From positions 16,096 to 80,095 of the forward strand of contig CAIPHT010000017.1 of assembly GCA_903864935.1 (NCBI GenBank): DNA of 64,000 bases, read 5' to 3'. The DNA is from Candidatus Vogelbacteria bacterium. Lineage in GTDB: Bacteria > Patescibacteriota > Minisyncoccia > Phycocordibacterales > XYD1-FULL-46-19. Shown here piece after piece: positions 1 to 43,114 of the stretch. Position 1 is the first letter of the stretch, and each line of letters opens with the position of its first letter. The translations under genes and the position numbers were made by a program. Under the pieces are notes generated by a model. The model was given only the letters and a program-made list of their open reading frames with translations. It was not told the origin of the DNA and did no database searches.

Positions 1-3000
1 TTAATACGGTTAGTTTGATTTTGAACGGGACAAATACTCTGACATATAATCATTTGCCAACTTTTTATCAAAATGGTTTTAAGAATCTCACTGTCGGTCA
101 AAGTGGGGGAACAACAACATTGGTAACAACAAACTCAGCTTATGGTTTAGCTGTTCGGTCTGTGTTGGCAATTGGTTCGGGCTCTTTGACAGGTTCAGGA
201 GTTGCTAATACGCTAAGTAATGGTGATTTATGGTTGGTAGGTTCTAACCCTCTCAGTTTTGATGCTAATTCGAGAATTTCTGTACCAAATTTGAGATTTT
301 GGAATACCGCAACAATCCCGTCTCTTACTAATGGTTATGATTGTAATATCGTAGTTGATTATAATTCTGGAGTTACTCAAACGGGCAATGTTGTTTTGAA
401 TGGTACGAAATCCTTGTTTGTTAGTGGAGAAAACGCTCCGGCCAGAACTCCTTCTTGGAATACTGCTGGTTATAATCTCTCAGTGGGAGGAAACATACAA
501 ATCGGTGCTAATGGTGGAGGAGATACTGGTCTTAAAACCCTCAACGCCACCGGTGCCGGTGGTCGCAACTCCACAATTACTGTGGGCGGGGACTGGCTCA
601 ATTATGGCACGGGGTCAGCTTCCTCGACCTTCGTTGCTGATAATTCTACGGTCATCTTCAACAAGACGTCCGGCACACAGAATCTAACCAGTGGTGGGAG
701 CTCCTTCTACAACCTCACCCACTCCGGCGCCGGTACCTTGAAGCTCTTGGCCAATGCCTTAACCGTCACTCACGATCTCACCAACTCTGGTGGTACCCTA
801 GACTCCAACGGTCAGACCATTAATGTCGCCGGCACTTGGAGCAACACCGCCAGCTTCTTGCATGGTTCAAGCACCGTCAACTTCACTGGTACCGATCAAG
901 GTATCTTCGGTACCTCCACCTTCTACAATCTCACCAAGACAGTCACTACCGCCGCCACCCTCACCTTCGAAGCGGCCAAGACCCAAGTCATTGCTGGTGT
1001 CCTCACCCTGCAAGGCGCTCTTAATCAACTTCTTTCTCTCGTTTCCTCGGTCGCTGGCACTGCCTTCAGTCTTAATCCTCTCAACATCAGTACCCTCAAC
1101 TTCCTCAGTGTCCAAGACTTCACCAATGCTTCATCAACCCCACTCATCCTCACCAACTCTCGTAACATTAGTGGTACCACCAACCTTGTCTTCGGACCGA
1201 CTACCGTCACGTGGACAGGAACCACCAACACCAATTGGAGTGTCGGTACTAACTGGGATGTGGGCTATGTACCAAACGCCACCGACAATGTCATCATCGC
1301 CAATACTGCCAACCAGCCGGTGCTCTCCACCTCTACCTCAGCCAACACCATCACCGTTAACTCTGGTGCAACACTTGCTGTCGGTACTTACAACTTAGCC
1401 ATCACGGGCACCTCGACTATTAATGGTACCTTAACCATTGGCAATTCAGCTGGCACTGGTTGGACGACGACCAACTTAATTATCGGTGCTAACGGTACCG
1501 CCTCGTCCACTGCCAATGGTACTATCTATTACAATCAGGTGACGGTGACGGGGACCTTGAGTCCGGATGCGACGGGGGTTTATACTGTAGTAGGGATGTA
1601 TAATGGTTATCCGTATTATCGACGAGGAACTGATAATTACTATGTTTATTATAATATGACGGGGTCGGGATTCGATTATTATCGTATCGGAACCGCGTTG
1701 GGCTCTACATATCCAGTTTGGAATTTTGTTGTTACTCAAGGTCTATTTAATCTTCCTAGCTCATCATACTTTAATAGTGGAACGACTGGCACCGCCACCG
1801 TCGCCAACGTCACCGCCTCCGGCGAATACACCAGATTAAACAATTCCAAAATAACTATTTCTGGTAATTATGATCAGTCGGCCACCTCATCTAAATTCCT
1901 CGCCGCCTCGTCGCTAATTACGGTTAATGGCAATGGCACTTTCACTGCGGATGGGACAGTAGCACCAACGCAGTATAATGGCGCTAGTTTAGTATTAAAT
2001 GGGGCGAATACTTTGACTTATAATTCCTTAGGCCCAGTTGTTCAAAATGGTTTTAATAATTTAACGGTTGCTCAAAATGGAAGCACTACTACTTTAGCTG
2101 GCAACTGGGCATATGGGGTTAAGAATCTTTTAACTGTTGGCTCGGGAACTTTGACTGGTAAAGTACTTTATTTGTCGAGCAATAATCCTTTGAGTGTGGA
2201 TGCCTCTGCACATATATTAACAGTCATGGCTTTTTATGGTACTGGTAATTCCATTCCTATTCCCTCGTGTGCCGGGTATGGCCAATTGTCTGTCTATAAT
2301 AGCGGAACAGTTATTCAAATGGGTAATATAATTGCAACTCAATTATTTTTAAATGCGGATGGATCAACTGGTTTATCAGCTACTTGGAAAACGGATGGTT
2401 ATAATCTAACCCTTGGAGGTAGTGTTACTATCGGCGCAAGCTCCGACTCCGGTCGCAAAACACTCGATGCCACCAGTGGTGCCACTAGTACTAGAAACTC
2501 CACCATCACCGTCGGTGGCAATTGGATTAACTATGGCAATGGAACAGCACCTTCACAGTTTATTGCCGCTAGTTCGACGGTTGTGATGACTGGCACTGGC
2601 GCGAGCGGAGCAATAACTTCTGGCTCCTCAACCTCCGCCTTCTACAATCTCACCATCAACGGCACCGGCGGGACTTACACTTTGCAAGATGCCGCCTCGG
2701 TGGCCGGCAATCTTAATGTCACGGCAGGCACTCTTGCCATTGGGGCGAATAATTTAGCGGTCACGGGCTCATCAACTATCACTAGCACCTTAACCCTTGG
2801 CACAGCCTCAAGTACCGGTTGGACAACAGGGGACTTGAATCTTGGTGCGAGCGGTACTATCACTTCCAATGCCACAACTTACTACAACCAAGTGACGGTG
2901 AGTGGGACTTCAAATCCAGATGTATCTGGAACCTACACCTTTTCCGGAACTTACAACGGAAGACCTTATTATAGAAGAGGAAGTGATAACTGGTATGTCT

Positions 3001-17197: not shown

Positions 17198-17226
17198 AAA
17201 TGTCCAACATCCGATGTTGGACATTT
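17198..17226. repeat. 29-nt perfect palindrome AAATGTCCAACAT-CCG-ATGTTGGACATTT (copy 1). It lies in the leader between the promoter and the RBS of the 17249 gene.
   Basis: 13-bp arms with a 3-nt centre. A second copy is at 18731-18758. Confidence 0.9.
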
Positions 17227-17581: not shown

Positions 17582-18646
17582 ATGAAGAAGATGTTGTTTG
17601 TGCTCGCATTGGCCCTCGTGGTCGTTGCCACGCCCGTTTGGGCGGCCCCTACCGAGGACGAACTCCTGCGTATGGCCAGCGCCTACGCTGGTCTCAACGT
17701 GACGCAGTATGAGGGGGACTTCGGGTTTACTCGGCTCCTTGTGAACGGATCGACACAGTTGGTCAACGGGAGCTTCACCATGATGGCAAACGGCGAGATC
17801 CCTCGCCTAGTCATCAATGGCGAGCAGGTCGTGGATTGGGGCGACGAGCCGTTGAGTGGTCTCCCTGAGAACAAAGTGGGCAGCGCGACCGATTACCACG
17901 TCCAGCTTAACGGCTGGGACGGGGAGTTGGGTCGCTACGTGACCTATGGGTGGTTCCAAGTCCCGCTCATGAAGCCGGGCGATCCCATTGCGGTTCAACT
18001 CTCCCTGTATTTTCAAGAGAGGCTTGTCAGCTTCGATCTCGACGGTCGACCGGCGGGCTCGGTGGTCTTGCGTATTATCGGCGACTCACGCTTCAGTTAC
18101 GATACCAATCGTGGCGCCTTCGATGTCTGGGTGGATCCAGCTTCGGCCGGTGACTACGAGATTGTCGATGTCGCCAGCGGAGAAGTACTGGCTACCGGGA
18201 GCATTCAGGTTGGTGCGAGCGGTAACAACACGGTCAATGCCATAATGCCCAACGGCATTAAGGAGTTGATCCCCGCCGGTGAGGACAGCATGTCTTGGTC
18301 CAACCAGAATTTCCAAGCCGTGAGTACTGGCAAGGCCTGGGTGCCGATGTTGGTCTACGTTGCTCGTGCCTACGGCTCTGGTCTGTCCATTGGTCCCAAT
18401 TTGCCATTCGGTGGGACCATTAACGTCTATTCGGTTGACGGTGACGAGTCAAAACTCGTACTCACAAAGGATGTCCCGATGAGTGTCGAGGTACCCTTTC
18501 CCGGTGGCGTGGGCAAGGCCGGTGGTTCCAATGTCGAGGTTCCCGCCGGCTTTGACCATCTCGTAATCCAGGTTGTCGGCAACGACAACAGCTGGAACAC
18601 TTCCTTCAGTCTCTGGGCCTGCCGCAATGGCGGTGGCAAAGGCTGA
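17582..18646 (+). CDS. secreted hypothetical protein, 354 aa, with a cleavable-looking signal peptide (GC-rich cassette gene 2)
   Basis: AAGGAG RBS. Signal peptide MKKMLFVLALALVVVATPVWAAP. Clearly higher GC than the neighbouring genes. No family recognised. Confidence 0.65.
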   Translation: MKKMLFVLALALVVVATPVWAAPTEDELLRMASAYAGLNVTQYEGDFGFTRLLVNGSTQLVNGSFTMMANGEIPRLVINGEQVVDWGDEPLSGLPENKVGSATDYHVQLNGWDGELGRYVTYGWFQVPLMKPGDPIAVQLSLYFQERLVSFDLDGRPAGSVVLRIIGDSRFSYDTNRGAFDVWVDPASAGDYEIVDVASGEVLATGSIQVGASGNNTVNAIMPNGIKELIPAGEDSMSWSNQNFQAVSTGKAWVPMLVYVARAYGSGLSIGPNLPFGGTINVYSVDGDESKLVLTKDVPMSVEVPFPGGVGKAGGSNVEVPAGFDHLVIQVVGNDNSWNTSFSLWACRNGGGKG

Positions 18647-18730: not shown

Positions 18731-18758
18731 AAAATGTCCAACATCCGATGTTGGACAT
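18731..18758. repeat. 29-nt palindrome copy 2 (AAAATGTCCAACAT-CCG-ATGTTGGACAT), downstream of the cassette and upstream of rpmG
   Basis: 25 nt identical to copy 1. Confidence 0.9.
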
Positions 18759-22862: not shown

Positions 22863-24341
22863 ATGAATTGGAAATTTAAAATTACACTCGTCTTGCTTGC
22901 TGTCATGTTGGCTTCTCCCGCTTTCGCCGCTGATCTTAAAGTTAGCGTTAGCAAGAGCGAAGTTGTCGTGGGCGAATTAATTACGGTGCGCATCATTGTG
23001 AGCACCCCCGATCAGGCGGCCAATGCCCTCTCGGGCGTCCTTAATTTTAATCCGAGCAAATTACAAGTCGTCTCTCTGTCTAAGTCTGGCTCCGTCGTTA
23101 ACCTTTGGGTGACCGAGCCGGATTTTTCTAATGCTAAGGGGCAAGTCTCTTTTGAGGGGGCTATTTTGAACCCCGGCTTCACGGGGAGTGCGGGCACAGC
23201 CCTTACTATCAATTTCAAGGCTAAGGAGACAGGCTCGGCCACCATCTCTTTTGCCAACGGCTCGGTCTTGGCCAATGATGGCTCAGGGACGAGTATTTTA
23301 AACAAACTCGGCCAGGCCATTATCTCTATCAAAGCTTTGGCGCCCAAAGTAGAGCCGGTAGTAGAAGAAGAACCAGTTGTGGCCCCAACTCCCGCCCCTG
23401 AAGTTAAGAAATCAACAACGGTACCGGGAGCTCCAGTTATCTCTTCGACAACTCACTTCGATCAGACTCGGTGGTATAACAATCGTTTCCCTAAATTCTC
23501 TTGGACTCTTCCCGATGATGTCACGGACGTTAGCTTCTTGTTTAATGATGAGAAATTGGCGACACCGGGGACTAAGAGCGATGGCCTCTTTGATGATTAT
23601 ACGGCCGACAACGAGGTGCCAGACGGTGTGTGGTACTTCCACCTTCGCCTCAAGAATAGTAAGGGCTGGGGGCCATCAGCGACCTTCGCTATCCATGTTG
23701 ATGGGACAGTACCGAACCGTTTAGAGGTTGAGGAGAAGAAATTAAGCGATCTTAATTATAAAACCAGTTTTATTTTTGACGGTACCGACGAGCTCTCAGG
23801 TCTCTCTCAATACGAATTTATTATTGATGACCTTAAGCCCGAGATAATACCCGCCGACAAGTCTCATGTCTACGAGACACCAGCGCTCTCTTCTGGCCAT
23901 CACACCTTAGTGGCCCGCGCGGTTGACCAAGCCGGTAACAAATTAGAGAAGAAGATTGAGTTCGAGATAATCTCTCCGCTTACCAAGGCCTCGCTTTATC
24001 GTTGGGGCAATGAACTTGTCATAATTTTGTCAGTCCTTATCCCACTTATTCTCCTCCTTTTAGCTTTAATTTATATTCTCATCATCGGCAGTCGCAAAAT
24101 TGCCAAGCTTAAGCGTAGTCTGCGTCAAGAAGTCAACGAGGTAGAGGAACATTTGCATCAAGCCTTTGACTTCATCCGTGATGATTTGCGTGAGCAAGTG
24201 AAATTGATTGAGAAGACGAAGGGCAAGCGCAAACTTACCTTGCTAGAGAACAAAATTATGCGCAAATTGCGCACCAATCTCACCGAAACCGAGAAATATA
24301 TCAAGAAAGACATTGAAGAAATTACGGAAAAAATCAAGTAA
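22863..24341 (+). CDS. Membrane protein (paralog 3) with a signal peptide, a cohesin-like domain, an Ig-like domain, a TM helix and a charged coiled-coil cytoplasmic tail.
   Basis: The N-terminal domain is about 50 percent identical by eye to the 21335 protein. Pro/Val/Glu-rich linker. Ig-like segment with the Y.S.D.AGN motif. TM (LVIILSVLIPLILLLLALIYILII), then a K/E-rich tail. The motif TAGGTCAATTAGAAATTAAG lies immediately upstream. Confidence 0.6.
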   Translation: MNWKFKITLVLLAVMLASPAFAADLKVSVSKSEVVVGELITVRIIVSTPDQAANALSGVLNFNPSKLQVVSLSKSGSVVNLWVTEPDFSNAKGQVSFEGAILNPGFTGSAGTALTINFKAKETGSATISFANGSVLANDGSGTSILNKLGQAIISIKALAPKVEPVVEEEPVVAPTPAPEVKKSTTVPGAPVISSTTHFDQTRWYNNRFPKFSWTLPDDVTDVSFLFNDEKLATPGTKSDGLFDDYTADNEVPDGVWYFHLRLKNSKGWGPSATFAIHVDGTVPNRLEVEEKKLSDLNYKTSFIFDGTDELSGLSQYEFIIDDLKPEIIPADKSHVYETPALSSGHHTLVARAVDQAGNKLEKKIEFEIISPLTKASLYRWGNELVIILSVLIPLILLLLALIYILIIGSRKIAKLKRSLRQEVNEVEEHLHQAFDFIRDDLREQVKLIEKTKGKRKLTLLENKIMRKLRTNLTETEKYIKKDIEEITEKIK

Positions 24342-24398
24342 AATTGACCTAAAATTGTTGATTTTTGCCTTTTGATTTGCCAATGTTATAATAGCCCT

Positions 24399-24776
24399 AT
24401 GGCCCCTAAAAAAACTATGACAATTGAAGATTTGGCTAAGTTAATGAAGCAAGGCTTCTCTAAAGCTGATACAGACACCGATAAAAAAATCGATAACTTA
24501 GCTGTTGCAATGCAAAAAGGCTTTGCTAAGGCCGAGAAAGATACCGATAAAAAAATCGATAACTTAGCGGTTATGGTTCAGCAAGGTTTTGAAGAAGTTC
24601 ATGCCGATATTTCCGATCTCAAGACCGACATTTCTCGTTTGGATGGAAGAATGGACAACATTGAGACCCGAATGGATAGCCTCGAACTTAAAATTGATGG
24701 CGTGAGAAGCATCATTGTTGTCGAGCATGGCAAGAGAATTGAGAAGCTCGAAAAGGCAGTTTTTCTTGGCCATTAG
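24399..24776 (+). CDS. small coiled-coil protein with an internal 22-aa tandem repeat (TDKKIDNLAV.MQ.GF); likely leaderless
   Basis: The ATG at 24399 lies 6 nt after a TGn-TATAAT box (24384-24392). The nucleotide repeat gatac(c/a)gataaaaaaatcgataacttagc occurs twice, 66 nt apart. Confidence 0.5.
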   Translation: MAPKKTMTIEDLAKLMKQGFSKADTDTDKKIDNLAVAMQKGFAKAEKDTDKKIDNLAVMVQQGFEEVHADISDLKTDISRLDGRMDNIETRMDSLELKIDGVRSIIVVEHGKRIEKLEKAVFLGH

Positions 24777-24778
24777 AA

Positions 24779-24799
24779 CTTAGAGGCTTCGCCTCTAAG
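24779..24799. repeat. REP-like palindrome, family 1, copy a: CTTAGAGGC-TTC-GCCTCTAAG
   Basis: Perfect 9-bp arms with a 3-nt loop, 2 nt after the stop of the 24399 gene. Confidence 0.9.
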
Positions 24800-24812
24800 T
24801 GAAGTTGTTTTT

Positions 24813-25193
24813 ATGAAAATCATAAAAGAAGGGAACGAGCTAGTTCTAAGGCTCCCCTTGTTACAAAAAGAGAATAATTTCTATAAAGGGGAGGAAGATT
24901 TAATTGATACCCAAAACTTAATTGGGGTTGTTTCCGGTAATGAATATACTATTTCTCAATTGAATGATCTTTCTTATAAAGGTGACCAACAAGAAGGTAT
25001 GCCGATTATCTATTTCTCAAGCAAAGAAGAACTAAAAGAAGCTTGTAAAACCTGTGGAATTGACATCTGGGAACACCCACTCTGTGCTTATTGTGGAAAA
25101 GTTATCAGAGGAAGCTCTACTTGGGCGAGCAAAGGTACCCAATGTTGGGATTGTTCTAATTTAGAGAACTTAGAGGCTTCGCCTCTAAGTTGA
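24813..25193 (+). CDS. hypothetical protein with a C-terminal Cys-rich zinc-ribbon-like segment; its stop codon is embedded in REP1 copy b
   Basis: 126 aa. C-terminus CKTCG..(11 aa)..CAYCGK..(12 aa)..CWDCSN. The last codons (LEASPLS) are encoded by the palindrome. Confidence 0.5.
   Translation: MKIIKEGNELVLRLPLLQKENNFYKGEEDLIDTQNLIGVVSGNEYTISQLNDLSYKGDQQEGMPIIYFSSKEELKEACKTCGIDIWEHPLCAYCGKVIRGSSTWASKGTQCWDCSNLENLEASPLS
25169..25189. repeat. REP-like palindrome, family 1, copy b (identical to copy a)
   Basis: cttagaggcttcgcctctaag. Overlaps the 3' end of the 24813 CDS and sits 24 nt upstream of the transposase ATG. Confidence 0.9.
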
Positions 25194-25212
25194 TAAGTAT
25201 AAACAAAAACAA

Positions 25213-25878
25213 ATGGCTCAAAGAAAAGTCGAGTTTGCAATTGGAGAGTACTATCATATCTACAATCGAGGGGTTGAGGGTCGGTGTATTTTTGCTGACC
25301 AGAAAGATCTGGCTCATTTTGCGCAAAGTGTCGAAGAGTTTAATGGAAACAATGTGGTCGGAGGCCTGTATATGGGCTCTTTTAAGAAACACAAAGAGAG
25401 GGGAGAGAAATTGGTAAATATAATTTGTTACGCTTTTAACCCTAATCATTACCACTTTTTAATGACCCCGTTGGTTGATAAAGGGATAGAAAATTTTATG
25501 CAAAGGCTTGGTACGGGTCACGCTATGTTTTTTAATAATCAACACAAAAGGAAGGGCCGATTGTTTCAAGGGGTTTTCAAATCTGTTCATGTTGGTTCAA
25601 ATAGACAGCTTTTGCATGCGAGTGTTTATGTTAATCTTAACGATAAAATCCACCAAATCGGAGGCGAAGCCTCTAAGTTGGTAAAGACAAGTTGGGGTAG
25701 TTATTCTTCGAATTCTTCAAAAAAGAGAGACTTTTTGCTTGGTGACACCAGTATTATTACCGATCAATTTAAAAATTTTCAAGAATATAAAAAATTTGCT
25801 GAAGAAATTTTGCCTGATATTATTGCCCGCAAAAAATCTCTAAAAGAGCTTGAAGAATTGATGTTGGATGAGAATTAA
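25213..25878 (+). CDS. HuH-family tyrosine transposase of the IS200/REP-associated (RAYT-like) type, copy 1
   Basis: N-terminal IGEYYHIYNRGVEGR. HuH motif NPNHYHFLM. RKGRLFQGVF. Tyr-containing segment ASVYVNLN, then WGSYSS. Paralogous to the 42223 gene. Flanked by family-1 palindromes, with a degenerate copy (GAGGCGAAGCCTCTAAG at 25662-25678) inside the CDS. Confidence 0.75.
   Translation: MAQRKVEFAIGEYYHIYNRGVEGRCIFADQKDLAHFAQSVEEFNGNNVVGGLYMGSFKKHKERGEKLVNIICYAFNPNHYHFLMTPLVDKGIENFMQRLGTGHAMFFNNQHKRKGRLFQGVFKSVHVGSNRQLLHASVYVNLNDKIHQIGGEASKLVKTSWGSYSSNSSKKRDFLLGDTSIITDQFKNFQEYKKFAEEILPDIIARKKSLKELEELMLDEN
25662..25678. repeat. degenerate REP1 copy (3' arm and loop only) inside the transposase CDS
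   Basis: ggaggcgaagcctctaag, encoding IGGEASKLV. Confidence 0.6.
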
Positions 25879-25882
25879 TCAC

Positions 25883-25903
25883 TTAGAGGCGAAGCCTCTA
25901 AGT
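25883..25903. repeat. REP-like palindrome, family 1, copy d: CTTAGAGGC-GAA-GCCTCTAAG, i.e. the opposite orientation
   Basis: Exact reverse complement of copies a and b, 5 nt after the transposase stop. Confidence 0.9.
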
Positions 25904-25937
25904 TGTAGAAATTTCCCCCTGACTTATCCACTTTTTT

Positions 25938-25962
25938 ATCGCTAAATATAGCGATTTTTTTG
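25938..25962 (+). terminator. hairpin ATCGCTA-aata-TAGCGAT plus T7; -10 box TATAAT at 25964-25969 directly after
   Basis: 7-bp stem then a U-tract. The giant-gene ATG is 14 nt after the -10, so that gene is probably leaderless or nearly so. Confidence 0.5.
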
Positions 25963-25982
25963 GTATAATATAAGCAAACTTT

Positions 25983-28900
25983 ATGTTTTCTGTTTGGCAA
26001 AATTTCGTGAGTAGAAAAGGCTTTTTTGGCGTTCTTTTTTTGATTGTTTTTTCTTTTATTTTGACGCCAACTTTTTCGGCTTTTGCCGTCACCGGTGTCC
26101 CGGCCACCATGAGCTATCAGGGTCGCTTGGCGAACTCAGCCGGTGATCTTGTTGGTGGTGCCGGTGCCATCTATTCTTTCAAATTTTCTCTCTGGGACAA
26201 TGCGACCGTTGGTGCGGGTTCGCAAGTTTGGCCAGCGGGCGCGCCCACCGCTGTCAATGCTACCGTCCGTCAAGGTCTCTTCAACGTCAACATTGGCGAC
26301 ACCGGGAGTGGTTATCCCGATGCTCTCAATTACGACTTCAGTCAGAACAACAAAATTTATTTGCAGGTTGAAGTCTCTTCCGACGGTCTTACTTACGAGA
26401 CTCTTGGTCCTCGTCAACCCATCACCAGTGCGCCCTTCGCTCAAGTCGCGGGTCAAGTCTCTGGCTCTGCTGTCTCCACTATGGGTGGTCTTGTCGTTAA
26501 CGGCGGGGTCACTAGCACCCACTCCACCACCACCGGCTCGGGCTACTTCGGCACCGCTTTAGGCCTCGCCGGTCAGTATATTAATTCTTGGTCTGACCTC
26601 GCCACTTATCTCCCCGTTGTTGTTGGTTGGAGCACCAGCTCTGATAGCACCAACTTCGCCACTCTCCTCGCTGGTACGACGACGGATGCTCTTGCTGAAG
26701 GTGTCAATCACAAGTATTACAGCAACGTCTACGTCGCTGATTATATTTCTTCCTCCTCCACCCTTGCCTCCTCGTTAAATTATTGGGCCAAGTCGGGGAG
26801 CGATCTTAGTTACACTGCGGGGAATGTTGGTGTCGGGATGAGCCCTGTCTACAAGCTTGATGTCAATGGCGCGATAAGGGCTAATGGTAGCAATATTATT
26901 GCTGGAGGCGGTTCGGTGTTTGGTTGGATTTTTGGTTCGAACGGTTTATCTAATGTTGACACTACCTTAAACACCTCGGCCGGTTACAATATTTTATTTA
27001 AAAATGGTACATCCGAGCAAATGAGAATCTCTTCAGGGGGTCTTGTTGGTATCGGCACCACCACCCCTACACAAAGACTCGACGTCCTCGGCAACATCCA
27101 AGTCAACGGCACCTCCTCCTACATGATCAATGGCGTCAACCTTGCTTTTGGTTCAACCACAAAACAAAATTATTTCTTCGGTGCGGCGGGCAATAGTAAT
27201 ATCACTGGGAGTTATAACACCGGTGTCGGCAAGGGCGCGCTCGTCACCACCACTTCGGGCGGTTACAATACGGCCGTTGGGCGTCAATCTCTCTACCTTA
27301 ATACTATCGGTTCATCAAACACGGCTTTGGGTAATAACGCTCTACAATCTGTCTCGGCAGGTGATGGCAATGTCGGCCTTGGTGCTGATGCTGGTCAATA
27401 CGAGCTCGGTTCTAACTCTTTCTACCTCAATAATATTGATCAGAACGATACCGCCGGCGACAAGGCCTACTCCTTATTGTATGGCAAATTCTCTGGTGTG
27501 GCCGGTTCGCTCACCAACCAATTCCTCACCGTCAACGGCAAACTTAATATCGGTACCACTACCATGGCCTCGACCTTCAACATTCAAGGTATCTCCGGTG
27601 TCTCGGCCTTAAATATTGCCTCATCAACTGGAGCTCCGATGTTCACGGTGGCAAGCAATGGCAACGTCGGTATCGGGACCAATGCGCCAGCGTATCCTTT
27701 GGACGTAAACGGGAATGCTAAAGTTAATGGAGTTTTGACCGTATTGAATGGCACTTCTTATGGTATTCTTGCGGGACTTTCAAAATTGAATTTGTATGAT
27801 AATGCCGGGAATGCCTCATATCAAAATAGTTATACTGGAGGTTGGGGTTTTGGAATTGGGAATATCTCGCCTACCTATACTTTAGACGTTAAAGGAAGTG
27901 GAGCTGCTGGTGGTATCTTTAATGTCGCTTCGTCGTCAGGAGTAAGTGCTTTGATGGTTTCGAATAATGGCAACGTCGGCATTGGCACAAACGCACCATC
28001 TACTGGGTTACATCTTTATGATAATACAAGCACTGCTAATAAAGCTCTTATGAGATTAGAGACTACGGCTGGAAGTGGTCAGAATGCTGGAATAAGAATG
28101 ATTGGCGGGGCTAGCAATGCAGATTGGATGATTGGTACTAATAGAGCCGATTTAGCTGGTGCAGGAGACAGCCTATTATTTTATAAAAGTTTAGGCACAG
28201 CCGGAACTAAAATGGTGATCCAAGATAACGGCAACGTCGGTATTGGCACCACTTCGCCCGCAACAGCCTTACATGTTTATGGCGCAACACCAGAGATTAG
28301 GTTAGATGCGAGTGGTAGCGTCAATGCTCAATATACTTTAAATCAAAACAATGTTAAATATGGTTTATTGGGTCTATCGCTAGCCACTGATCAGCTTGCT
28401 CTTGGGTCAGCTGTCGGTGACGTTGTCCTTAGAGCTAACGCTGGTCAGAAACTTATGTTAAGCGCCAACGGTTCAGGCGCAAGCTCGACCATGACTTTAT
28501 TGAATGGTCTTGTTGGGATTGGCACCACCACCCCAAGCTCCTTGCTTCATCTCTATGGCAGTAGCGCCAACCCTTTGATTCTTGAGAGAAATAGCAGCCT
28601 TGCTAATGTTGGAATTCAATTCAAAGATACTTCGGGCTCTTGGTATGCTGGTAAGGGTACTGGGACGGGGAATTTTGCTATTGGTACTGATGCTAATCTT
28701 GGGGCCAGCACAATTTTTAATATTCAATCGAATGGTAACGTTGGTATTGGGACTTCTTCACCAGCTAACCCTTTGACCGTTGCGGATAAAGCTCAGATCG
28801 GAACATCTATTACAAACACCTCTCAGTCCGCCTCACTTGTTGTCCAAGGCACGGCTTCAAGAGCAGCCATGTATATTCAGGGTGATGCTTCGCGTTCAGC

Positions 28901-31900
28901 TTCGACCGATTTGATTTATTCAGTCAATAGATATGGAGTCGCTGGCGGATTCCAAATGTTCGGTGATCACAGCATGCTTATCGGCAGTACCGGGAAAGAA
29001 TTTCAATATCAAGGTAGCACCGGCTATGTCGGTATCGGCACTACCTCACCATCACAGTTATTGACCGTTGGGAATAACAATCAATTTACCGTCACGTCTG
29101 GGGGAGCGGTTAGTGCCACGGGCGGATTCTCGACCAATGGCACTGTCAACGCTGGTTATTATCAACTTGGCGGTATCCAAGCCTTTGCTTACTCTGGGAC
29201 GCAGGTCCAAGTTTCGCCGGCCGCCTATTGGCAATCCCTCGGCTTATTTACCAATGGTTCAGAAAAAGTTTCTATTTTAAGTAATGGCAACGTCGGTATC
29301 GGTACCACTACCCCATGGGCCAAACTTTCTCTTCAGAATTCCTACGGCTCCACAGGGGCTTTGCTTGATATTGCCACTACCACCTCGTCGGCTTTTGCCA
29401 CTTCATCGGTCTTCTATGTGGGGTCCAATGGTTACGTCGCGGTGGGAACGAACAATCCAACCAATCTTTTTGAAGTTGATGTTGGTGGTGTTTATAAGGT
29501 AGCAGTAAATGCAGGAGGAACATTTGTTGCCAAGAATGACGTAATGACCAACCTGATTGGTGATCTTGGCTCAAAATATCAGAAGATAATGCTTGATCAA
29601 GCAAACGGTTTGAGATTCTTTGCTGGCTCTTCGGCTTCCAATGAGTATATGAGAATCAACCAATCTGGCCTCGTCGGCATCGGCACCACTTCACCAATGG
29701 CCACTCTGTCTGTCATGGGCACTTCAACCTTGCCGGGCGTTAATCCTTTTGTTGTCGCTTCTTCGTCTGGTGTTCAACTTTTAACCGTGTTGCCGAATGG
29801 TAATGTGGGGGTGGGGACAACAAATCCGAGTGCTAAATTAACAGCATTTTCCGATGCAACATCCGGCGCAATAGGAGACACTCTAAGAGTATTTTCTGGT
29901 CTAGGGTCTGTAGCATTAAAAATATATTCAACCACAAATGGTGACGGATTGATCATCAATCAGTATTATCAGGGTTCAGGGCAAAATTATATCAGAATGG
30001 CGGATATCGTGTCTAACTCAGGAGATACTTCAGAAGCACAAATTCGGTTTCTAACTAAGCCAAACTCAGCAAATCCTAGCGAAGCAATGCGAATTACTGG
30101 CAGTGGTTTTGTTGGTATCGGTACTACGAGCCCCGCTCTTAAATTGCATGTATTAGGCACTATTGGTCTGCCGGCTACTTCTGGTACGGCCCAGAATGGT
30201 GTCGCAAGATTCTCGGTTGACCCAGCCGGAACGGGTTATGTTTTGGATATGGGTGTTCTCTCCGGTGCCTCATGGTTGCAGACAACTATTGCCGGTGACC
30301 TAGGCACTTATGGTTCTTTGCTCTTGAACCCACGCGGGGGCAATATCGGTATTGGCACAGCTACTCCGGGTAAGACCTTAGATGTGAATGGTGATATCAG
30401 AATAGGGGTAAATAATAAACTTTATTTGGTCTCAACAAATGATAGTAATTATCTATCATATAATGAGTGGAACACTGCCTCCTCGATTGGTCTTAAGTTT
30501 TTAATTAGTGGCAACGAGAAGATGAGAATTGATGCTTCCGGCAACGTCGCCATTGGCACCTCAACCCCTTGGGCCAAGCTCGCCATTCAGAATTCCTACG
30601 GCTCCACTCAGGCCTTGTTTGATATAGCGACGACGACTTCATCAGCCTTCGCCACCTCGTCGGTCTTCTATGTTGGGGCGAATGGCAATGTGGGTATCGG
30701 CACGGCGAACCCTGCCAAGAGACTGTCAATAACGGATGCGAATACGGCCTTAAGCGCGTATGCTTTAAATATTAGTGCTTATAAGAGCTCTGGCAATTTC
30801 TCTGGACTCTCGTTTGGCGATGATAGTGGCGGAACTGTTTGGGGCGCAATTAAGTTCAAAGCCGATACCAATAACGACAGTTCTTTGAGATTCTTGACTT
30901 GGGACGGGACGACTGGCGGCACAGAGAGATTAACAATCAAGGGAGTTGGGGGCTCAGTTGGTATTGGTTCTACTTCTCCTATTTCTACCCTCTCTGTTAA
31001 AGGTGTTGCCGGCTATAATCCATTCACCATTTCTTCTTCCACGGATGCTTCGCTCCTCACTATCTTACAGAATGGCAACGTCGGTATTGGGACAAGTAGT
31101 CCGGCGACTTCTTTGGATGTTTATAGTAATACGACGGACAATATCTTCCGTTTGATGACGGGGCCCGCTATTGGGGTGATGCCCACCTTTACCATGTCAC
31201 AAGGGGGAACCAACAATTTTCAAATTGGCCGAGCGCTAACTCTTTTCAACCCTAACCTTGGGGGTATCGCCGCCGAGAATGATGTCGGTTTCTCTGCCCC
31301 GACCAACCGAAGCCTCTATTTTGGTACCGCCGCTAATCCTTACTTAGCAATAAGAAATGGTGGCAATGTGGGTATTGGCACGACGAGCCCCCCTGATTTA
31401 CTAACTGTTTACCATGATAGCTCCGCAGACACCGTCTTAAATATTTCTAATAATAGCCTCAGTGCAAGTTACGGGAGTTCGGTTTTGAAGTTCAGCCAAG
31501 GAAACGGTGAGGCAGCCTATATCTCTTGGAATCAGGCAAACCAGCTTTTTAAATTTGTAGCTGGACGAAATAATTTTAATAACTTCTCTTTCAATACTGT
31601 TACAGGAGGAGCTGAGGTCTCAAGATTATTTATACAAAATAATGGTAACGTTGGTATCGGCTCCACTTCACCAATGGCCACCTTGTCAGTAATGGGCACC
31701 TCGACCTTGCCGGGCGTTAATCCTTTTGTCGTCGCTTCTTCATCCGGTGCTCAACTTTTGACGGTGTTGCCAAATGGCAAAGTGGGCATAGGGACAACCG
31801 GACCTGTTACTAAGTTATCTTTATCGGATGCCACGTCCACTTTTCTAACTATTTCTAATACTAACAATGCTAGTGGTGTGGTCGGAGGAATGTTGTTCTC

Positions 31901-34900
31901 AAGTCAATACGAATCAACGTATAGAAAAGGGGCTATCTCTTTTGTGCGGACTGAGAGTAACGCAAACAGGGGTTATCTCTCTTTTGCCTTGGATGCCAGT
32001 AACACCGCTAGTAACGTTGACTCTGATATTATCGGTAATACAAAAATGGTCATTGACTATACTGGCTCTGTCGGGATTGGAACGACGGCCCCAGGGGCAA
32101 AGTTAGATATTGTTGGTGTAAATAATCAATTAAGAATTACTAATGCAGACGGAACTAATTATTATAGTATCGGTAGGAGTAATTCAAACGGGTATTTAGA
32201 GTTTAGTTTAACTGGTGCTAATTCTTATGGATATACATTCAATGGTGGCCTCGTCGGTATCGGTACCACTTCACCAATGGCCACCTTATCAGTAATGGGC
32301 ACTTCAACCTTGCCGGGCGTTAATCCTTTTGTCGTCGCTTCTTCATCCGGTGCTCAACTTTTGACTGTATTGCCGAGTGGTAACGTGGGAATTGGTATTT
32401 CTAATCCTGCTCAGTTACTGGATGTTGAGGGGAGAATAAGAGCTAATACCCTTGAGTTTGGCGCTAACAATAGTTATCTCGGTTATCTTGATCAGGGGGG
32501 TCTAGTCTTTAACTCTTCGGGTGTGGGGACTATCTATAATGCTTACTCTGGTTCCAACCTCTTCCTTTCTAGTAACGGAGGCAACGTGATATTGGGGATG
32601 AGAGATGACGGACTCGCTTCTTATAATGGCAAGGTGGGCATCGGCACTTCAACTCCTTTTGCCAAACTTGCCATTCAGAATTCCTTTGGTTCCACTCAGG
32701 CCTTGTTTGATATTGCGACGACCACTTCATCCGCCTTCGCCACCTCGTCGGTCTTCTATGTTGGGGCGAATGGTAATGTGGGTGTTGGTACTAACCTCCC
32801 GACAAATAAATTTACCGTCAGTGGGACAGTTGACCCTGTGCGCTTCCATAGCACCGGTCAAAATGTCTTAGAAATTTCTAGTACGGGGAATAGTGAGAAT
32901 GGTGTTAGATTCACTCGTAGCGGCGATGCCTCTTACTGGACCTTGGGGATGGATAATAATTCGACTAATGACTTTTATCTTGGCTCTAGCGGTTTTGGAA
33001 CAAAGTATCTAACTGTTTTGCAAACAAACGGCAACGTTGGTATTGGCACCACCACACCAATCTCCACTCTCTCTGTTTCCGGTACCGCGGGCATTAATCC
33101 GTTTACCATTGCTTCATCCACCGGCCAGACAATGCTAACAATGCTTCAGAATGGCAATGTGGGAATCGGTACAGCGAATCCAATTTCGCCTCTAACTATT
33201 TCTAAAAATTCTGCCACTACGGCAACTTGGTTAAATTTGGATAATACTGATGTTGGGGGCGCGGGGGTAATGTTGGATTTTACACAAGGCGGAGGGATGA
33301 TGGGACGAATAAATAGTTACTATGCTGGTAATGGGTTATGGAATCTTGGTTTGGGGACAAATGCTAACTCAGGATTGCCGGTGTTGTTTGTGACAAACGG
33401 CCGAGTGGGAGTAGCGAGCACTACGCCACAATCCACCTTCGCTGTCTCTGGTATCGCTGGCACAAATCCTTTCACTATTGCTTCTTCAACTGGCCAGACA
33501 ATGCTAACAATGCTTCAGAATGGCAACGTCGGTATTGGTACAGCGGCGCCAAGTTATCCATTGGATGTTGTCGCAAATTCAAGTGGATCAAATTTGAATC
33601 TTATAAACAACCCCAGTAATCTTTCGGGGATTAGATTTGGGGTAAATGGAACGCCTGCCTCTTCTTACACGACGATTTTCGCTGATGGCAGATCTACCGG
33701 TTATTTGTATATTAAAACTAATGATATTGAGCGATTCCGCATCGACTCAAATGGCAACGTCGGTATTGGCACGACAACCCCAAGTGATATCCTAAGTATC
33801 CAAGGTAATTCATCAATCCTTGGTAATACTCCTTCCGTTGGACTTAATAATACGGATTCTGGAGGTAGATTGTGGAGTATTTATTCTTCTGGTAACAGTA
33901 ATTCTATTGGCGGTGGTAAGTTTAGTATTTTTGATAAAACAGCCAGTTTAAATAGACTCGTTATTGATTCCTCTGGCAATGTGGGGATTGGTACTTCTAG
34001 CCCACAGTCAATTCTTCATCTCTATGGTGCGACAGTTAAGCCTCGACTCGAGCGTTCGGTTAGTTCGGGCGCGGCAGTTTTGGACTTCTGGCCATCGGGT
34101 ACTTTGAGTCAGGCTAATTCTGTTTGGAGTTTTGGTATGGTTGAGAATAATAGTAATTTCTCGGTCAATCAATGGACTGGCTCGCAAACTTTGCAGAGAC
34201 TTCTTGTTGATACGAATGGCAACGTTGGTATTGGTACGACGAGTCCTGCGGCGACTTTGGATATAGAGATAAATAATACATCAGGAGCTTCAACCATTCC
34301 TGTTTTTAGAGTAGGAAATTTGGCGGGTACTCCAGCCTACTTTGGTATTACATTGGGCGGTTCGGCGAGTGGTTGGGAAAATATCGCACAGCTCCAACTT
34401 AATGGGACTAAATACATATCTTTAGATGGTGGGCAATCCACAGTTGATTTACATAAAAATATGTTATTGGATAATAATGTATCTTTTCAGGCATCTTCCA
34501 ATGGATTTAACAACTTTGTTCCTTATAACACAGCTTTTTCAAATGGATTCTCTTTTGATACAGGCTCAATATTTAGCTTCCAGACAAATGGTAGTCCGGT
34601 TATGACAATATTAAATAATGGCAACGTCGGCATTGGCTCCACCACCCCGCTCTCCACCCTCTCAGTCTCCGGCACGGCTGGCACCAACCCATTCACAGTC
34701 GCTTCCTCCACTGGCAACGCGATGTTGACGATGCTTCAGAATGGCAATGTGGGAATCGGTACAGCGAATCCCGGGAACAAGCTTCATATTGTAGGTGGGG
34801 GTCTCTCTTTGGGTGATAGCGTTTCTGCCTTAACAACAAGGGGATTATTTAATATTCACGACTCAAGTAATGCTCGAATGAGCATTACTAAAGCAAGCGT

Positions 34901-42096: not shown

Positions 42097-42120
42097 TTCA
42101 CCGAGGTAGTTTTTTGCCCA

Positions 42121-42149
42121 ATCACCGCTAGGCATTGCCTAGCGGTGAT
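42121..42149. repeat. REP-like palindrome, family 2, copy a: core CCGCTAGGC-ATT-GCCTAGCGG, extended to 14-bp arms (ATCACCGCTAGGCA/TGCCTAGCGGTGAT)
   Basis: Perfect inverted repeat read directly. Confidence 0.9.
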
Positions 42150-42195
42150 TATACGTTGCAAACAAAGGCTAAATTTATCCACATTTTTCCATTTT

Positions 42196-42216
42196 CCGCT
42201 AGGCATTGCCTAGCGG
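42196..42216. repeat. REP-like palindrome, family 2, copy b, followed by TATAAT and the transposase ATG
   Basis: ccgctaggcattgcctagcgg, then tataat (42217-42222), then ATG at 42223. Confidence 0.9.
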
Positions 42217-42222
42217 TATAAT

Positions 42223-42903
42223 ATGTTTATGTCGGAAAGGAAATTTATTTTTTCGATCGGTGAATTTTATCACATCTATAATCGTGGAGTAGAGAAGCGC
42301 GTTATCTTTAACACGGTCGCAGACAAATATCGTTTCTTGAAGTTGCTTTATTTGTGTAATGGAGGAGAGCCTTTTAAGTTCGATGAACTAAAGAGAGGTG
42401 AGGAATATCTATTCAGACGGGGCGAACCGATTGTTGATATATGCGCCTATTGTTTAATGGACAATCACTATCATCTTATCCTGAGAGAAATTAAGGAGGG
42501 CGGGATCAGTATTTTTATGCACCGGCTTGGGACTTCTTACTCAGCCTATTTTAATAAATTGAATGAACGCAAAGGGTCATTATTCCAAGATAAATTTGGG
42601 GCCAGACATTTTGATAGTGATGAATATTTGAAATATGGGATTGCTTATAATCATCTTAATCCGGTGAAAATGGTTGAGCCCAAGTGGAAGGAGGAGGGCA
42701 TTAAAGATATGGATAAGGTAAAAAAATTTATCGAGAAATATCGCTTTTCTAGTTATCTTGATTATAAGGGCCAAAAACGGAACGAAAATCGCATTTTGAA
42801 TATGGATTCTTTGCCCGAGTATTTTGATAATGCCAAGGAGTTTGACGATTACTTAACTGATTGGCTAGGTTATCATGCGGAAGAACCGCTAGGCCTTGCC
42901 TAG
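42223..42903 (+). CDS. HuH-family tyrosine transposase of the IS200/REP-associated (RAYT-like) type, copy 2
   Basis: IGEFYHIYNRGVEKR. HuH motif MDNHYHLIL. RKGSLFQDKF. YGIAYNHLNPVK, comparable to the Y..NPVK motif of REP-associated Y1 transposases. FSSY. The stop codon TAG lies inside REP2 copy c. Confidence 0.8.
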   Translation: MFMSERKFIFSIGEFYHIYNRGVEKRVIFNTVADKYRFLKLLYLCNGGEPFKFDELKRGEEYLFRRGEPIVDICAYCLMDNHYHLILREIKEGGISIFMHRLGTSYSAYFNKLNERKGSLFQDKFGARHFDSDEYLKYGIAYNHLNPVKMVEPKWKEEGIKDMDKVKKFIEKYRFSSYLDYKGQKRNENRILNMDSLPEYFDNAKEFDDYLTDWLGYHAEEPLGLA

Positions 42904-42906
42904 CGG
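42886..42906. repeat. REP-like palindrome, family 2, copy c (loop variant CTT), overlapping the transposase stop
   Basis: ccgctaggccttgcctagcgg. Confidence 0.9.
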
Positions 42907-42957
42907 TAATTTAATGTCGATAAATAAGGCTTAAATAGCCACTGCTTTTGGAGTTTT

Positions 42958-42984
42958 CCCTAGGCATTGCCTAGCGGTTTTTTT
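42958..42984 (+). terminator. REP family 2, copy d (5' arm degenerate: CCCTAGGCATTGCCTAGCGG) plus T7; acts structurally as a hairpin and U-tract terminator
   Basis: Hairpin followed by ttttttt. Confidence 0.6.
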
Positions 42985-43040: not shown

Positions 43041-43114
43041 GGGCCTATAGTTCAATGGTAGAACAATGGTCTCCAAAACCATCGATCGAGGTTCGAGTCC
43101 TCGTGGGCCCGCCA
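43041..43114 (+). tRNA. tRNA-Trp (anticodon CCA), CCA end encoded
   Basis: GGGCCTA-TA-GTTC-AATGGTA-GAAC-A-ATGGT-CTCCAAA-ACCAT-CGAT-CGAGG-TTCGAGT-CCTCG-TGGGCCC-G-CCA. Cloverleaf folded by hand. Confidence 0.85.

Follow-up and report, generated by a model that had tools for sequence, protein, structure and literature searches.

Most work on repetitive extragenic palindromic (REP) sequences and their associated tyrosine transposases (RAYTs) concerns Proteobacteria, and further subclasses are described from Cyanobacteria and Bacteroidetes. Classical REPs are present in more than 100 copies per genome (Nunvar 2010, PMC2817692), and the described class 2 RAYTs have a Y---NP motif in common (Quentin et al. 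2018, PMC6006769). Neither the latter survey nor those of Di Nocera et al. 2013 (PMC3733652) and Bertels et al. 2017 (PMC5581495) covered the Patescibacteria, and in the full-text literature, most subscription journals lying outside it, we found no paper tying RAYTs or palindromes of the kind described below to this group. Here we analyse a 64-kb stretch of DNA from a Candidatus Vogelbacteria bacterium, hereafter the window, in which an open reading frame (ORF) for a HuH/Y1-type protein (25213..25878) is flanked and entered by copies of a short palindrome. The locus is probably a Patescibacteria-specific relative of REP/RAYT systems, namely a chromosomal gene for a HuH/Y1 single-stranded DNA (ssDNA) endonuclease together with a cognate palindrome that the enzyme would copy or replace.

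In-frame REPs inside a tnpA_REP gene have been reported solely for TnpA_Y1 subclass 2.4, which is RAYT group 4 of Bertels et al. 2017, has symmetric 'double-foot' REPs and the motifs NH[IFV]H, WQ and YIxNNP, and is hosted by Cyanobacteria and Bacteroidetes (Quentin et al. 2018, PMC6006769). Its flanking repeats occur at low frequency, about 14 occurrences, and flanking-repeat counts are low for RAYT groups 1 and 4 (Bertels et al. 2017, PMC5581495). Subclass 2.1 (TIRYT-like) comprises proteins of ~238 aa with NH[YF]H, FQ and Y[IV]HLNP motifs and a conserved SS tail (PMC6006769; PMC3733652), and is reported to be accompanied either by no REPs or by unrelated terminal inverted repeats with GGGGWSAS (PMC6006769; Di Nocera et al. 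2013, PMC3733652). The signature motif of IS200 is Y---Q (Quentin et al. 2018, PMC6006769). Palindromes inside genes are represented by the GTAG/CGTC REPs, many of them in repair genes, some of which have been equated with Rickettsia palindromic elements (Di Nocera et al. 2013, PMC3733652).

As in the E. coli REPtron (rayT/yafM; structure 4ER8), the gene studied here is flanked by its own palindromes, inverted copies included, and one palindrome family belongs to each gene. In contrast, however, the GT[AG]G 5' tag of REPs is absent from the Patescibacteria hairpins, which have perfect 10-11-bp stems and a 3-nt loop where classical stems are longer and imperfect; there is about one copy per 45-60 kb, the dispersed copies being mostly intragenic, whereas classical REPs are dispersed extragenically and highly repeated; and the protein, of ~220 aa, ends in a helical tail and has YVNLN[DN] as its Y motif. 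Set against subclass 2.4, the two in-gene sites occupy fixed orthologous positions, one ahead of the HuH motif and the other past the Y motif; the stem foot reads ACTTRG, and the protein motifs are NHYH, FQ and YVNLN[DN]. Both HuH paralogues of the window resemble subclass 2.1 (NHYH, FQ, YVNLND or YNHLNP, SSW/SSY) by published motif tables only. With the IS200/IS605 transposases (IS608, ISDra2, IS200) the locus shares the Y1 HuH core working on ssDNA hairpins, a hairpin-bracketed gene and a hairpin before the start codon, whereas near-identical multiple copies, distinct left and right hairpins and Y---Q are absent here. Rickettsia palindromic elements and intragenic REPs are likewise short in-frame palindromes that lengthen housekeeping proteins by a few residues, and the excision-repair hosts UvrB, UvrC and UvrD are common to the present hairpins and the intragenic REPs (PMC3733652); in contrast to both, the unit here is only 21-25 nt (7-8 codons), is tied to a cognate HuH gene and changes in concert across the sites of a genome.

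The first-pass annotation of the locus had seen in it the signature of a REP/RAYT system. That reading is supported in part: the RAYT fold and the flanking cognate hairpins are there, while the GTAG tag, the high copy number, the extragenic location, the equivalog score and Y---NP of canonical systems are not. Thus the locus, without several of the features that define canonical REP/RAYT systems and with the structural and organisational ones, falls outside the characterised RAYT groups.

The HuH/Y1 protein and its hairpins in the window

The gene and the hairpins around it are listed here, the hairpins having no strand assigned; U, H3 and D denote positions upstream of the start codon, within the coding sequence (CDS), and after or across the stop codon.

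25213..25878, forward strand: HuH/Y1 (RAYT-like) gene, 221 aa, recognised by motifs, profiles and predicted fold
24778..24800: family-1 hairpin, extra upstream copy, ACTTAGAGGC.TTC.GCCTCTAAGT
25167..25191: family-1 hairpin at position U, AACTTAGAGGC.TTC.GCCTCTAAGTT
25657..25677: decayed in-frame hairpin at position H3, ATCGGAGGC.GAA.GCCTCTAAG
25881..25903: family-1 hairpin at position D, ACTTAGAGGC.GAA.GCCTCTAAGT

The HuH motif HYHFL and the downstream tyrosine noticed in the first-pass annotation were both recovered, the former as N78-H79-Y80-H81-F82 (nt 25444-25458, with H79-Y80-H81 at 25447-25455) and the latter as the presumed catalytic Tyr139 in YVNLND (nt 25627-25629); a tail motif, S160-W161, is also present. 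The suggested assignment to Y1_Tnp (PF01797) stood in that this was the sole family matched in a Pfam scan, and fell short in score, 22.4 bits against a cut-off of 23; the NCBIfam RAYT model NF047646, an equivalog, gave 16.5 bits where 80 are required. Homologues number more than 1,100, and all those that carry a source name and lineage are Patescibacteria (Paceibacterota, Woesebacteria, Giovannonibacteria, Kaiserbacteria). Y1_Tnp was matched by 54 of 55 sampled homologues at E<=1e-3, the best E being 1.3e-8, and a profile search of 1.84 billion representatives returned 1,023 clusters (at 50% identity) for E<=1e-30, a number that rises to 10,031 for E<=1e-10. Residues Y14, H15, N18-R19-G20, N78-H79-x-H81, G120, Y139-x-N141-L142-N143, H147 and S160 are invariant in the 55 homologues and F118 and Q119 nearly so, the Y motif of the window protein and its homologues reading Y-V-N-L-N-[D/N/Y/F].

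Searches of the PDB with the single sequence and with the 55-sequence profile found no relative of solved structure; such relatives were recognised by fold comparison only. The best structural matches of the AlphaFold model (predicted local distance difference test score, pLDDT, 81) were all Y1 transposases, and structure comparison placed the predicted fold far nearer to E. coli TnpA_REP, a RAYT (4ER8), than to the IS200/IS608 transposases. An hhalign comparison with E. coli RayT aligned HYH with HMH, FQG with WQP and Y139 with Y115, with an E value of only 0.04. Judged by its HuH motif, its single tyrosine and the fold of its model, ORF 25213..25878 encodes a protein of the HuH/Y1 superfamily.

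The hairpins were sought across the whole window as CTTAGAGGCNNNGCCTCTAAG, allowing up to three mismatches, with 100 shuffles as the control. Four matches were obtained against 0.03 expected, a number reached in none of the 100 shuffles, and no copy was found in the 64 kb outside 24779-25902. Three are perfect copies of CTTAGAGGC-NNN-GCCTCTAAG, at 24779-24799 and 25169-25189 with a TTC loop and at 25882-25902 with GAA; the three perfect copies proposed earlier, the last with its loop inverted, are therefore real, except that the last begins at 25882 and not at 25883. The degenerate copy reported inside the transposase CDS is also there, although it begins at 25657 and not at 25662 (its intact part, GGAGGCGAAGCCTCTAAG, runs from 25660); its three mismatches all lie in the left arm, and it encodes I148-GGEASK-L155. 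Including flanks, family-1 stems measure 10-11 bp. Folded as ssDNA, the perfect copies reach -9.1 to -10.2 kcal/mol (z -5.2 to -5.9) and the decayed copy -6.9 kcal/mol (z -2.7).

The extra upstream copy begins 2 nt past the stop codon of ORF 24372..24776. For the HuH gene, 23 nt separate the 21-nt core of the U hairpin from the ATG, and the D hairpin begins 2 nt past the stop codon with the loop inverted relative to the upstream copies. Perfect hairpins with a stem of at least 9 bp and a 3-nt loop number eight in the window, against ~0.2 expected from shuffles, and all eight fall into three families, two of which surround HuH genes.

Hairpins at four positions across relatives

To the window we compared 80 metagenome loci with homologues 40-56% identical to the protein, plus genome loci found by the exact palindrome, 87 loci in all. 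These were retrieved through conserved peptide or DNA patterns, the contigs are metagenomic and the gene starts are predicted, and the census of hairpins around the gene counted perfect Watson-Crick stems with a 3-nt loop only. Hairpins were found at four positions: at U in 65 of the 87 loci, the stem most often ending 14 nt before the ATG; at D in 55, the stem most often starting 2 nt past the stop codon; and within the CDS in 41 (perfect hairpins at H3, near residue 150) and 35 (H2, near residue 60). All four positions are filled in 12 loci, three in 33 and none in 12. The chance of a perfect 8-bp stem in 200 nt is ~0.003 by our own arithmetic.

The stems combine a constant part with a variable one. 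The foot, A-C-T-T-R-G / C-Y-A-A-G-T, is conserved to at least 90% at most positions, and the consensus of 60 upstream hairpins is nCC-ACTTGG....CCAAGT-Gn, while the four loop-proximal pairs and the loop vary between genomes, giving 34 different 7-nt cores among the loci. Within a locus, all copies have one common 7-nt core in 57 of the 64 loci holding two or more hairpins, the orientation of the loop being free among positions. Changes on both sides of the stem were seen at 10 of 11 stem pairs in the alignment of the 60 upstream hairpins, and in a 68%-identical relative (L132) a compensatory pair change, CTGAGAGGC/GCCTCTCAG, is present in all three copies. One locus (L051) has an identical imperfect hairpin at three positions and another (L089) an identical composite hairpin at both gene ends, which indicates that the hairpins are copies of one another and not independently selected stems. 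In four loci (L005 2215-2279, L023 3869-3925, L043 and L088) many copies are exactly centred in much longer perfect palindromes, with stems of up to 23-24 bp; these may stem from inverted copying of the flanks or from insertion of the hairpin into the loop of an older hairpin.

Hairpins inside the HuH gene are in frame. In 76 of 77 in-CDS hairpins the codon phase is the same, the loop forming one codon, and the encoded peptide is L-(G/R)-x-x-x-x-K. In the protein alignment they appear as insertions of 7-8 residues, facing a gap in some homologues and decaying remnants in others, and the H2 and H3 peptides are identical within a genome, as with LGTPTTK, which occurs twice in L086. By the AlphaFold model and the alignment, both sites are surface loops of the protein, H2 in a low-confidence loop ahead of the strand with the HuH motif and H3 directly past the helix that bears Tyr139. 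The window gene has no hairpin at H2 and, at H3, the decayed copy at 25657, a position at which a 79%-identical relative has a perfect hairpin, CCAACTTAGAGGC.GAG.GCCTCTAAGTTGG; the system thus looks partly run down in the window genome. The earlier suggestion that the internal copy arose when the element recombined with its own gene was not borne out; the copy is a decaying occupant of a family-wide in-frame site that is filled in 41 of 87 loci.

Such perfect two-fold symmetry would also suit a dimeric protein binding double-stranded DNA, and a conserved foot around a variable centre recalls some bipartite recognition sites. It could be envisaged, then, that the palindromes are binding or recombination sites of another protein (a dimeric regulator, a restriction-modification system or a recombinase) and that proximity to the HuH gene is incidental or regulatory. 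We regard this as very improbable, as the hairpins are associated with the HuH gene in 75 of the 87 loci at positions fixed relative to it, the hairpin variants follow the individual paralogue with no other conserved neighbour gene, and in their central 3-nt spacer and 10-bp arms the palindromes agree with the ssDNA hairpins to which Y1 enzymes bind (4ER8).

Paralogues, dispersed copies and expression

The window holds one gene copy of each of two diverged HuH paralogues, the second with the following extent.

42120..42978, forward strand: second HuH/Y1 system, with paralogue 42223..42903 (226 aa) and its own hairpin family

The second protein is 37-39% identical to the first, has the motif YNHLNP and scores 26 bits with Pfam Y1_Tnp, above the cut-off. 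Its hairpin, family 2, is CCGCTAGGC.ATT.GCCTAGCGG, and matches in the window are just four, against 0.14 expected: 42120-42150, 42196-42216, 42885-42907, which supplies the stop codon of the paralogue, and 42958-42976, with one mismatch. Second paralogues in three further loci (L065, L068 and L103) each have a palindrome of their own. The first family-2 copy is the centre of a palindrome with a 14-bp stem, and a tRNA-Trp gene lies downstream of the system at 43041-43114.

The third family, ATGTCCAACAT.CCG.ATGTTGGACAT, is found at 17198-17226 and 18734-18758 with stems of 13 and 11 bp. Its hairpins bracket a two-ORF unit, a small membrane protein and a secreted protein of 354 aa (17582..18646), with no HuH gene nearby, and the same arrangement occurs in contigs of four other samples; a variant without the segment between 17198 and 18734 was sought and not found. 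In a Paceibacterota metagenome-assembled genome (MAG; L039) the stem of the window hairpin with its TTC loop stands at 855-875 and 1438-1458, bracketing a histidine-phosphatase-like gene (916..1461) whose C-terminus, ELRGFTSK plus stop, is encoded by the 3' hairpin, with no HuH gene within the 8 kb.

A palindrome confined to this locus, or a protein without a match to Y1 transposase models, had been named as an outcome that would count against the first-pass reading. By this yardstick the result is formally borderline. The 64 kb have no copy elsewhere, and relatives have dispersed copies. The exact 18 specified bases were found in 38 stretches of a 596-Gb genome collection, where chance predicts ~9 (596e9/4^18). 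Five of the 38 are from clearly unrelated bacteria, consistent with the chance expectation; nearly all others are Patescibacteria MAGs (Paceibacteria, Yanofskybacteria, Kaiserbacteria, Saccharibacteria), several with copies on 3-6 contigs, and their loops agree within a genome apart from orientation and differ between genomes. Copies outside HuH loci are mostly in long ORFs, in the two stop-free phases, encoding LRGxASK or (N/H)LEAxPLS, usually between domains of the host protein. By Pfam the host genes are YchF, GMP synthase (GuaA), GlyRS, PheRS-beta (PheT), ArgRS, UvrD, UvrC, PurH, D-Ala-D-Ala carboxypeptidase and MnmA, and UvrB and MurB are also among the in-frame hosts. Genome-specific copies away from the gene number 11-12 per 0.53-0.70 Mb of flanking DNA in the metagenome loci, about half of them inside long ORFs, or about one per 45-60 kb, copy numbers being extrapolated from flanking DNA and not from whole genomes. 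The only in-frame hairpins of the window are those in the HuH gene and those encoding the C-terminal ends of ORF 24813..25193 and of the second paralogue.

YchF provides both a filled and an empty site. In L006 it has 382 aa against 365 in orthologues 90-94% identical, and its 17 extra residues, LLRGLASQ-NLEARPLS, correspond to two tandem hairpins with opposite loops; in L133, whose YchF is 94% identical to that of L006, the DNA is empty at the insert point. An in-frame palindromic insertion is thus seen in relatives that is absent from a close orthologue. In L134 the same YchF linker is filled by a doublet of that genome's variant, ACTTGGAAGC, and MnmA by a doublet of a second variant. The empty site in L133 reads GGTCTTGGAATAAAAGAT; the CTTGG foot within it may represent a target motif or, alternatively, a scar left by a hairpin since lost. 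In PheRS beta a hairpin peptide (HLEAKPLS or NLEARPLS) occupies the same spot past YGY-x-KI in a Saccharibacteria MAG and a Paceibacterota MAG (L009 7970 and L024 803), and MnmA carries a hairpin in three genomes (L010, L027, L134); the two sites look like recurrent hot spots.

The features of the copies bear on whether they act as DNA or RNA. Among 55 imperfect copies, sense-strand G-T mispairs number 23 and A-C mispairs 30, so that a test for RNA structure through G-U excess was negative. Copies occur on either strand of host genes, loops in both orientations, and the stems are perfect palindromes, while an Rfam scan of 24000-26500 found no family; together these observations favour an element acting at the DNA level. 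A simple terminator scan scored the 24778 and 25903 copies as terminator-like, with a poor T tract past the stems, and a sigma-70 promoter scan of the upstream hairpin gave nothing convincing. The leader hairpin of IS200 limits expression, and by analogy the upstream hairpin may limit expression of the HuH gene, a role backed by the fixed spacing of the U hairpin to the ATG.

The same facts could be taken further, the hairpins being cis-acting expression signals (terminator, insulator, stabiliser of mRNA ends or translation brake) homogenised by gene conversion, with the HuH protein uninvolved. REPs do stabilise mRNA ends in E. coli, U hairpins end at a fixed short distance before the start codon (mode 14 nt) and D hairpins start 2 nt past the stop, two window copies are terminator-like, and hairpins bracket genes other than HuH genes (17198/18734 in the window; L039). 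We nevertheless consider this unlikely. Two of the four conserved positions are within the CDS and most dispersed copies are within housekeeping genes, where a terminator would do damage; the loop occurs in either orientation, the sense strand has no G-U excess and the T tract is poor; different HuH paralogues go with different hairpins; and homologous recombination would hardly homogenise a 4-bp top and a loop across sites that share a 6-bp foot.

Next to the HuH gene, signs of turnover come from a segment of the following extent.

24801..25190, forward strand: polymorphic 390-bp segment, unique DNA plus one hairpin copy, absent in L003

The contig L003, 1,251 bp long and from a different sample, matches the window at 99.9-100% identity on either side of a junction at which exactly 390 bp are missing. 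This junction falls exactly within a 26-nt repeat (24775-24800 = 25165-25190), and the left edge of the segment is the hairpin 24778..24800. The segment holds ORF 24813..25193 (126 aa, with a Cys-rich C-terminus), whose last 8 codons are hairpin-encoded, and translation bore out the first-pass reading that it ends in ...NLEASPLS*, supplied by the 25169 hairpin. The 33 homologues of this ORF are found within phage-like arrays that include genes for terminase, DNA methylase and RNase H. A phage-type gene between two hairpins is thus polymorphic in the population. The idea that this ORF family is hairpin-flanked cargo elsewhere was rejected, the 33 homologues being without hairpins, and a phage origin of the HuH gene or the hairpin was dropped, as exact-pattern and protein scans of viral contigs found no family hairpin and no HuH-family protein.

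The surroundings of the locus differ from those of its closest HuH homologues. No synteny was found between the window and the closest HuH relatives. Three relatives are mutually syntenic (HisRS, S26, Pth, S1, HuH, lactamase-B, GyrA), the window gene lying elsewhere. Upstream, at 20.5-24.3 kb, are paralogous cohesin-like secreted proteins, and downstream a highly repetitive surface-type protein of 4,613 residues (25983-39824) starts ~80 nt past the D hairpin. Of two close, syntenic loci, L130 has an extra nucleotidyltransferase (NTP_transf_2) gene (3727-4380) directly past the D hairpin of the HuH gene and L131 does not; integron-like stacking of cassettes at the HuH gene was rejected as an explanation, no hairpin following the extra gene.

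This layout invites the question of whether the ~735-bp unit from U to D is an autonomous IS200-type insertion sequence, the hairpins being its ends and the solo hairpins by-products. Its size and layout are like those of IS200: subterminal hairpins enclose a single Y1 gene, whose start codon closely follows a hairpin. Moreover, the neighbourhood of the window copy differs from that of relatives 68-77% identical, and the sole Pfam match is the IS200-like family. However, the window has no second identical copy and paralogues are just 30-39% identical, three relatives are mutually syntenic around the HuH gene, the fold is much nearer to RAYT than to the IS200/IS608 TnpA, and the Y---Q signature is absent (PMC6006769). 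Moreover, both 'ends' are one perfect palindrome and not distinct left and right ends, and the palindrome also stands alone within genes, so that we judge an insertion sequence of this type to be quite improbable.

A putative REP/RAYT relative and its implications

As mentioned above, the reading that we regard as probable is that of a Patescibacteria-specific relative of REP/RAYT systems. It would be a REP/RAYT-like system of a mostly intragenic, low-copy type, in which we infer catalysis by the enzyme. The biochemistry of E. coli TnpA_REP and of IS608 TnpA is established and is the basis for the steps proposed here. During an ssDNA phase, in replication or transcription, the palindrome would extrude as a hairpin, which the enzyme would grip through its variable top and loop; the conserved foot would be nicked by Tyr139, with a metal held by His79 and His81. 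On rejoining of the strands, hairpins would be copied or replaced at sites bearing the foot, preferentially near their own gene (in cis), and DNA between two hairpins might occasionally be moved, for instance the 390-bp segment 24801-25190. Copying driven by the enzyme would account for alike copies at sites that share merely a 6-bp foot, which ordinary recombination explains poorly.

Several points weigh against this. The window protein is narrowly under the Pfam cut-off and far under the NCBIfam RAYT cut-off, and its Y motif is YVNLN[DN], not the Y---NP common to the described class 2 RAYTs. The proposed hairpin binding, cleavage site and strand transfer all extrapolate from IS608 and E. coli TnpA_REP. 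Recombination across the 26-nt repeats and gene conversion could also account for the 390-bp variant and for the identical copies. All family-1 copies in the window lie within 1.1 kb of the gene, and dispersal is thus unproven for this genome, while the copy number in relatives is 10-100 times below that of classical REPs, which fits a weak, mostly cis-acting or absent activity. Finally, the 98% pairing of the stems follows from the choice of perfect stems; as stems were preselected in this way, the informative facts are the presence of a hairpin at the same place and the variety of the stems.

A wider reading, which we put forward tentatively as possible rather than probable, is a phylum-wide, self-homogenising HuH-hairpin system. 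An enzyme with the RAYT fold would write palindromes of 7-8 codons in frame, singly or as inverted doublets, into tolerant linkers of essential genes and two fixed loops in its own gene, with the conserved 6-bp foot as cleavage or target site and the fast-evolving 4-bp top and loop as a specificity code. If true, it would be an active source of lineage-specific small insertions marking housekeeping proteins of the candidate phyla radiation (CPR), and hairpin pairs could capture or move the genes between them, such as the phage-type ORF 24813..25193.

The family is large and amounts to a natural experiment of unusual clarity. Its hairpins are very short and join a constant foot to a variable top, and sequence directly reveals dozens of pairs of enzyme and hairpin. 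One genome can contain paralogues whose hairpins differ, and near-identical essential genes have filled and empty sites. Such pairs and sites make the rules of recognition, and the unsettled mechanism by which REPs spread, testable with short oligonucleotides. Annotation is touched as well, since a hairpin can be the origin of a small CPR-specific insert in an aminoacyl-tRNA synthetase, YchF, MnmA or a Uvr protein. Were the activity real, it would bear on how streamlined genomes tolerate a mutagenic element within their essential genes.

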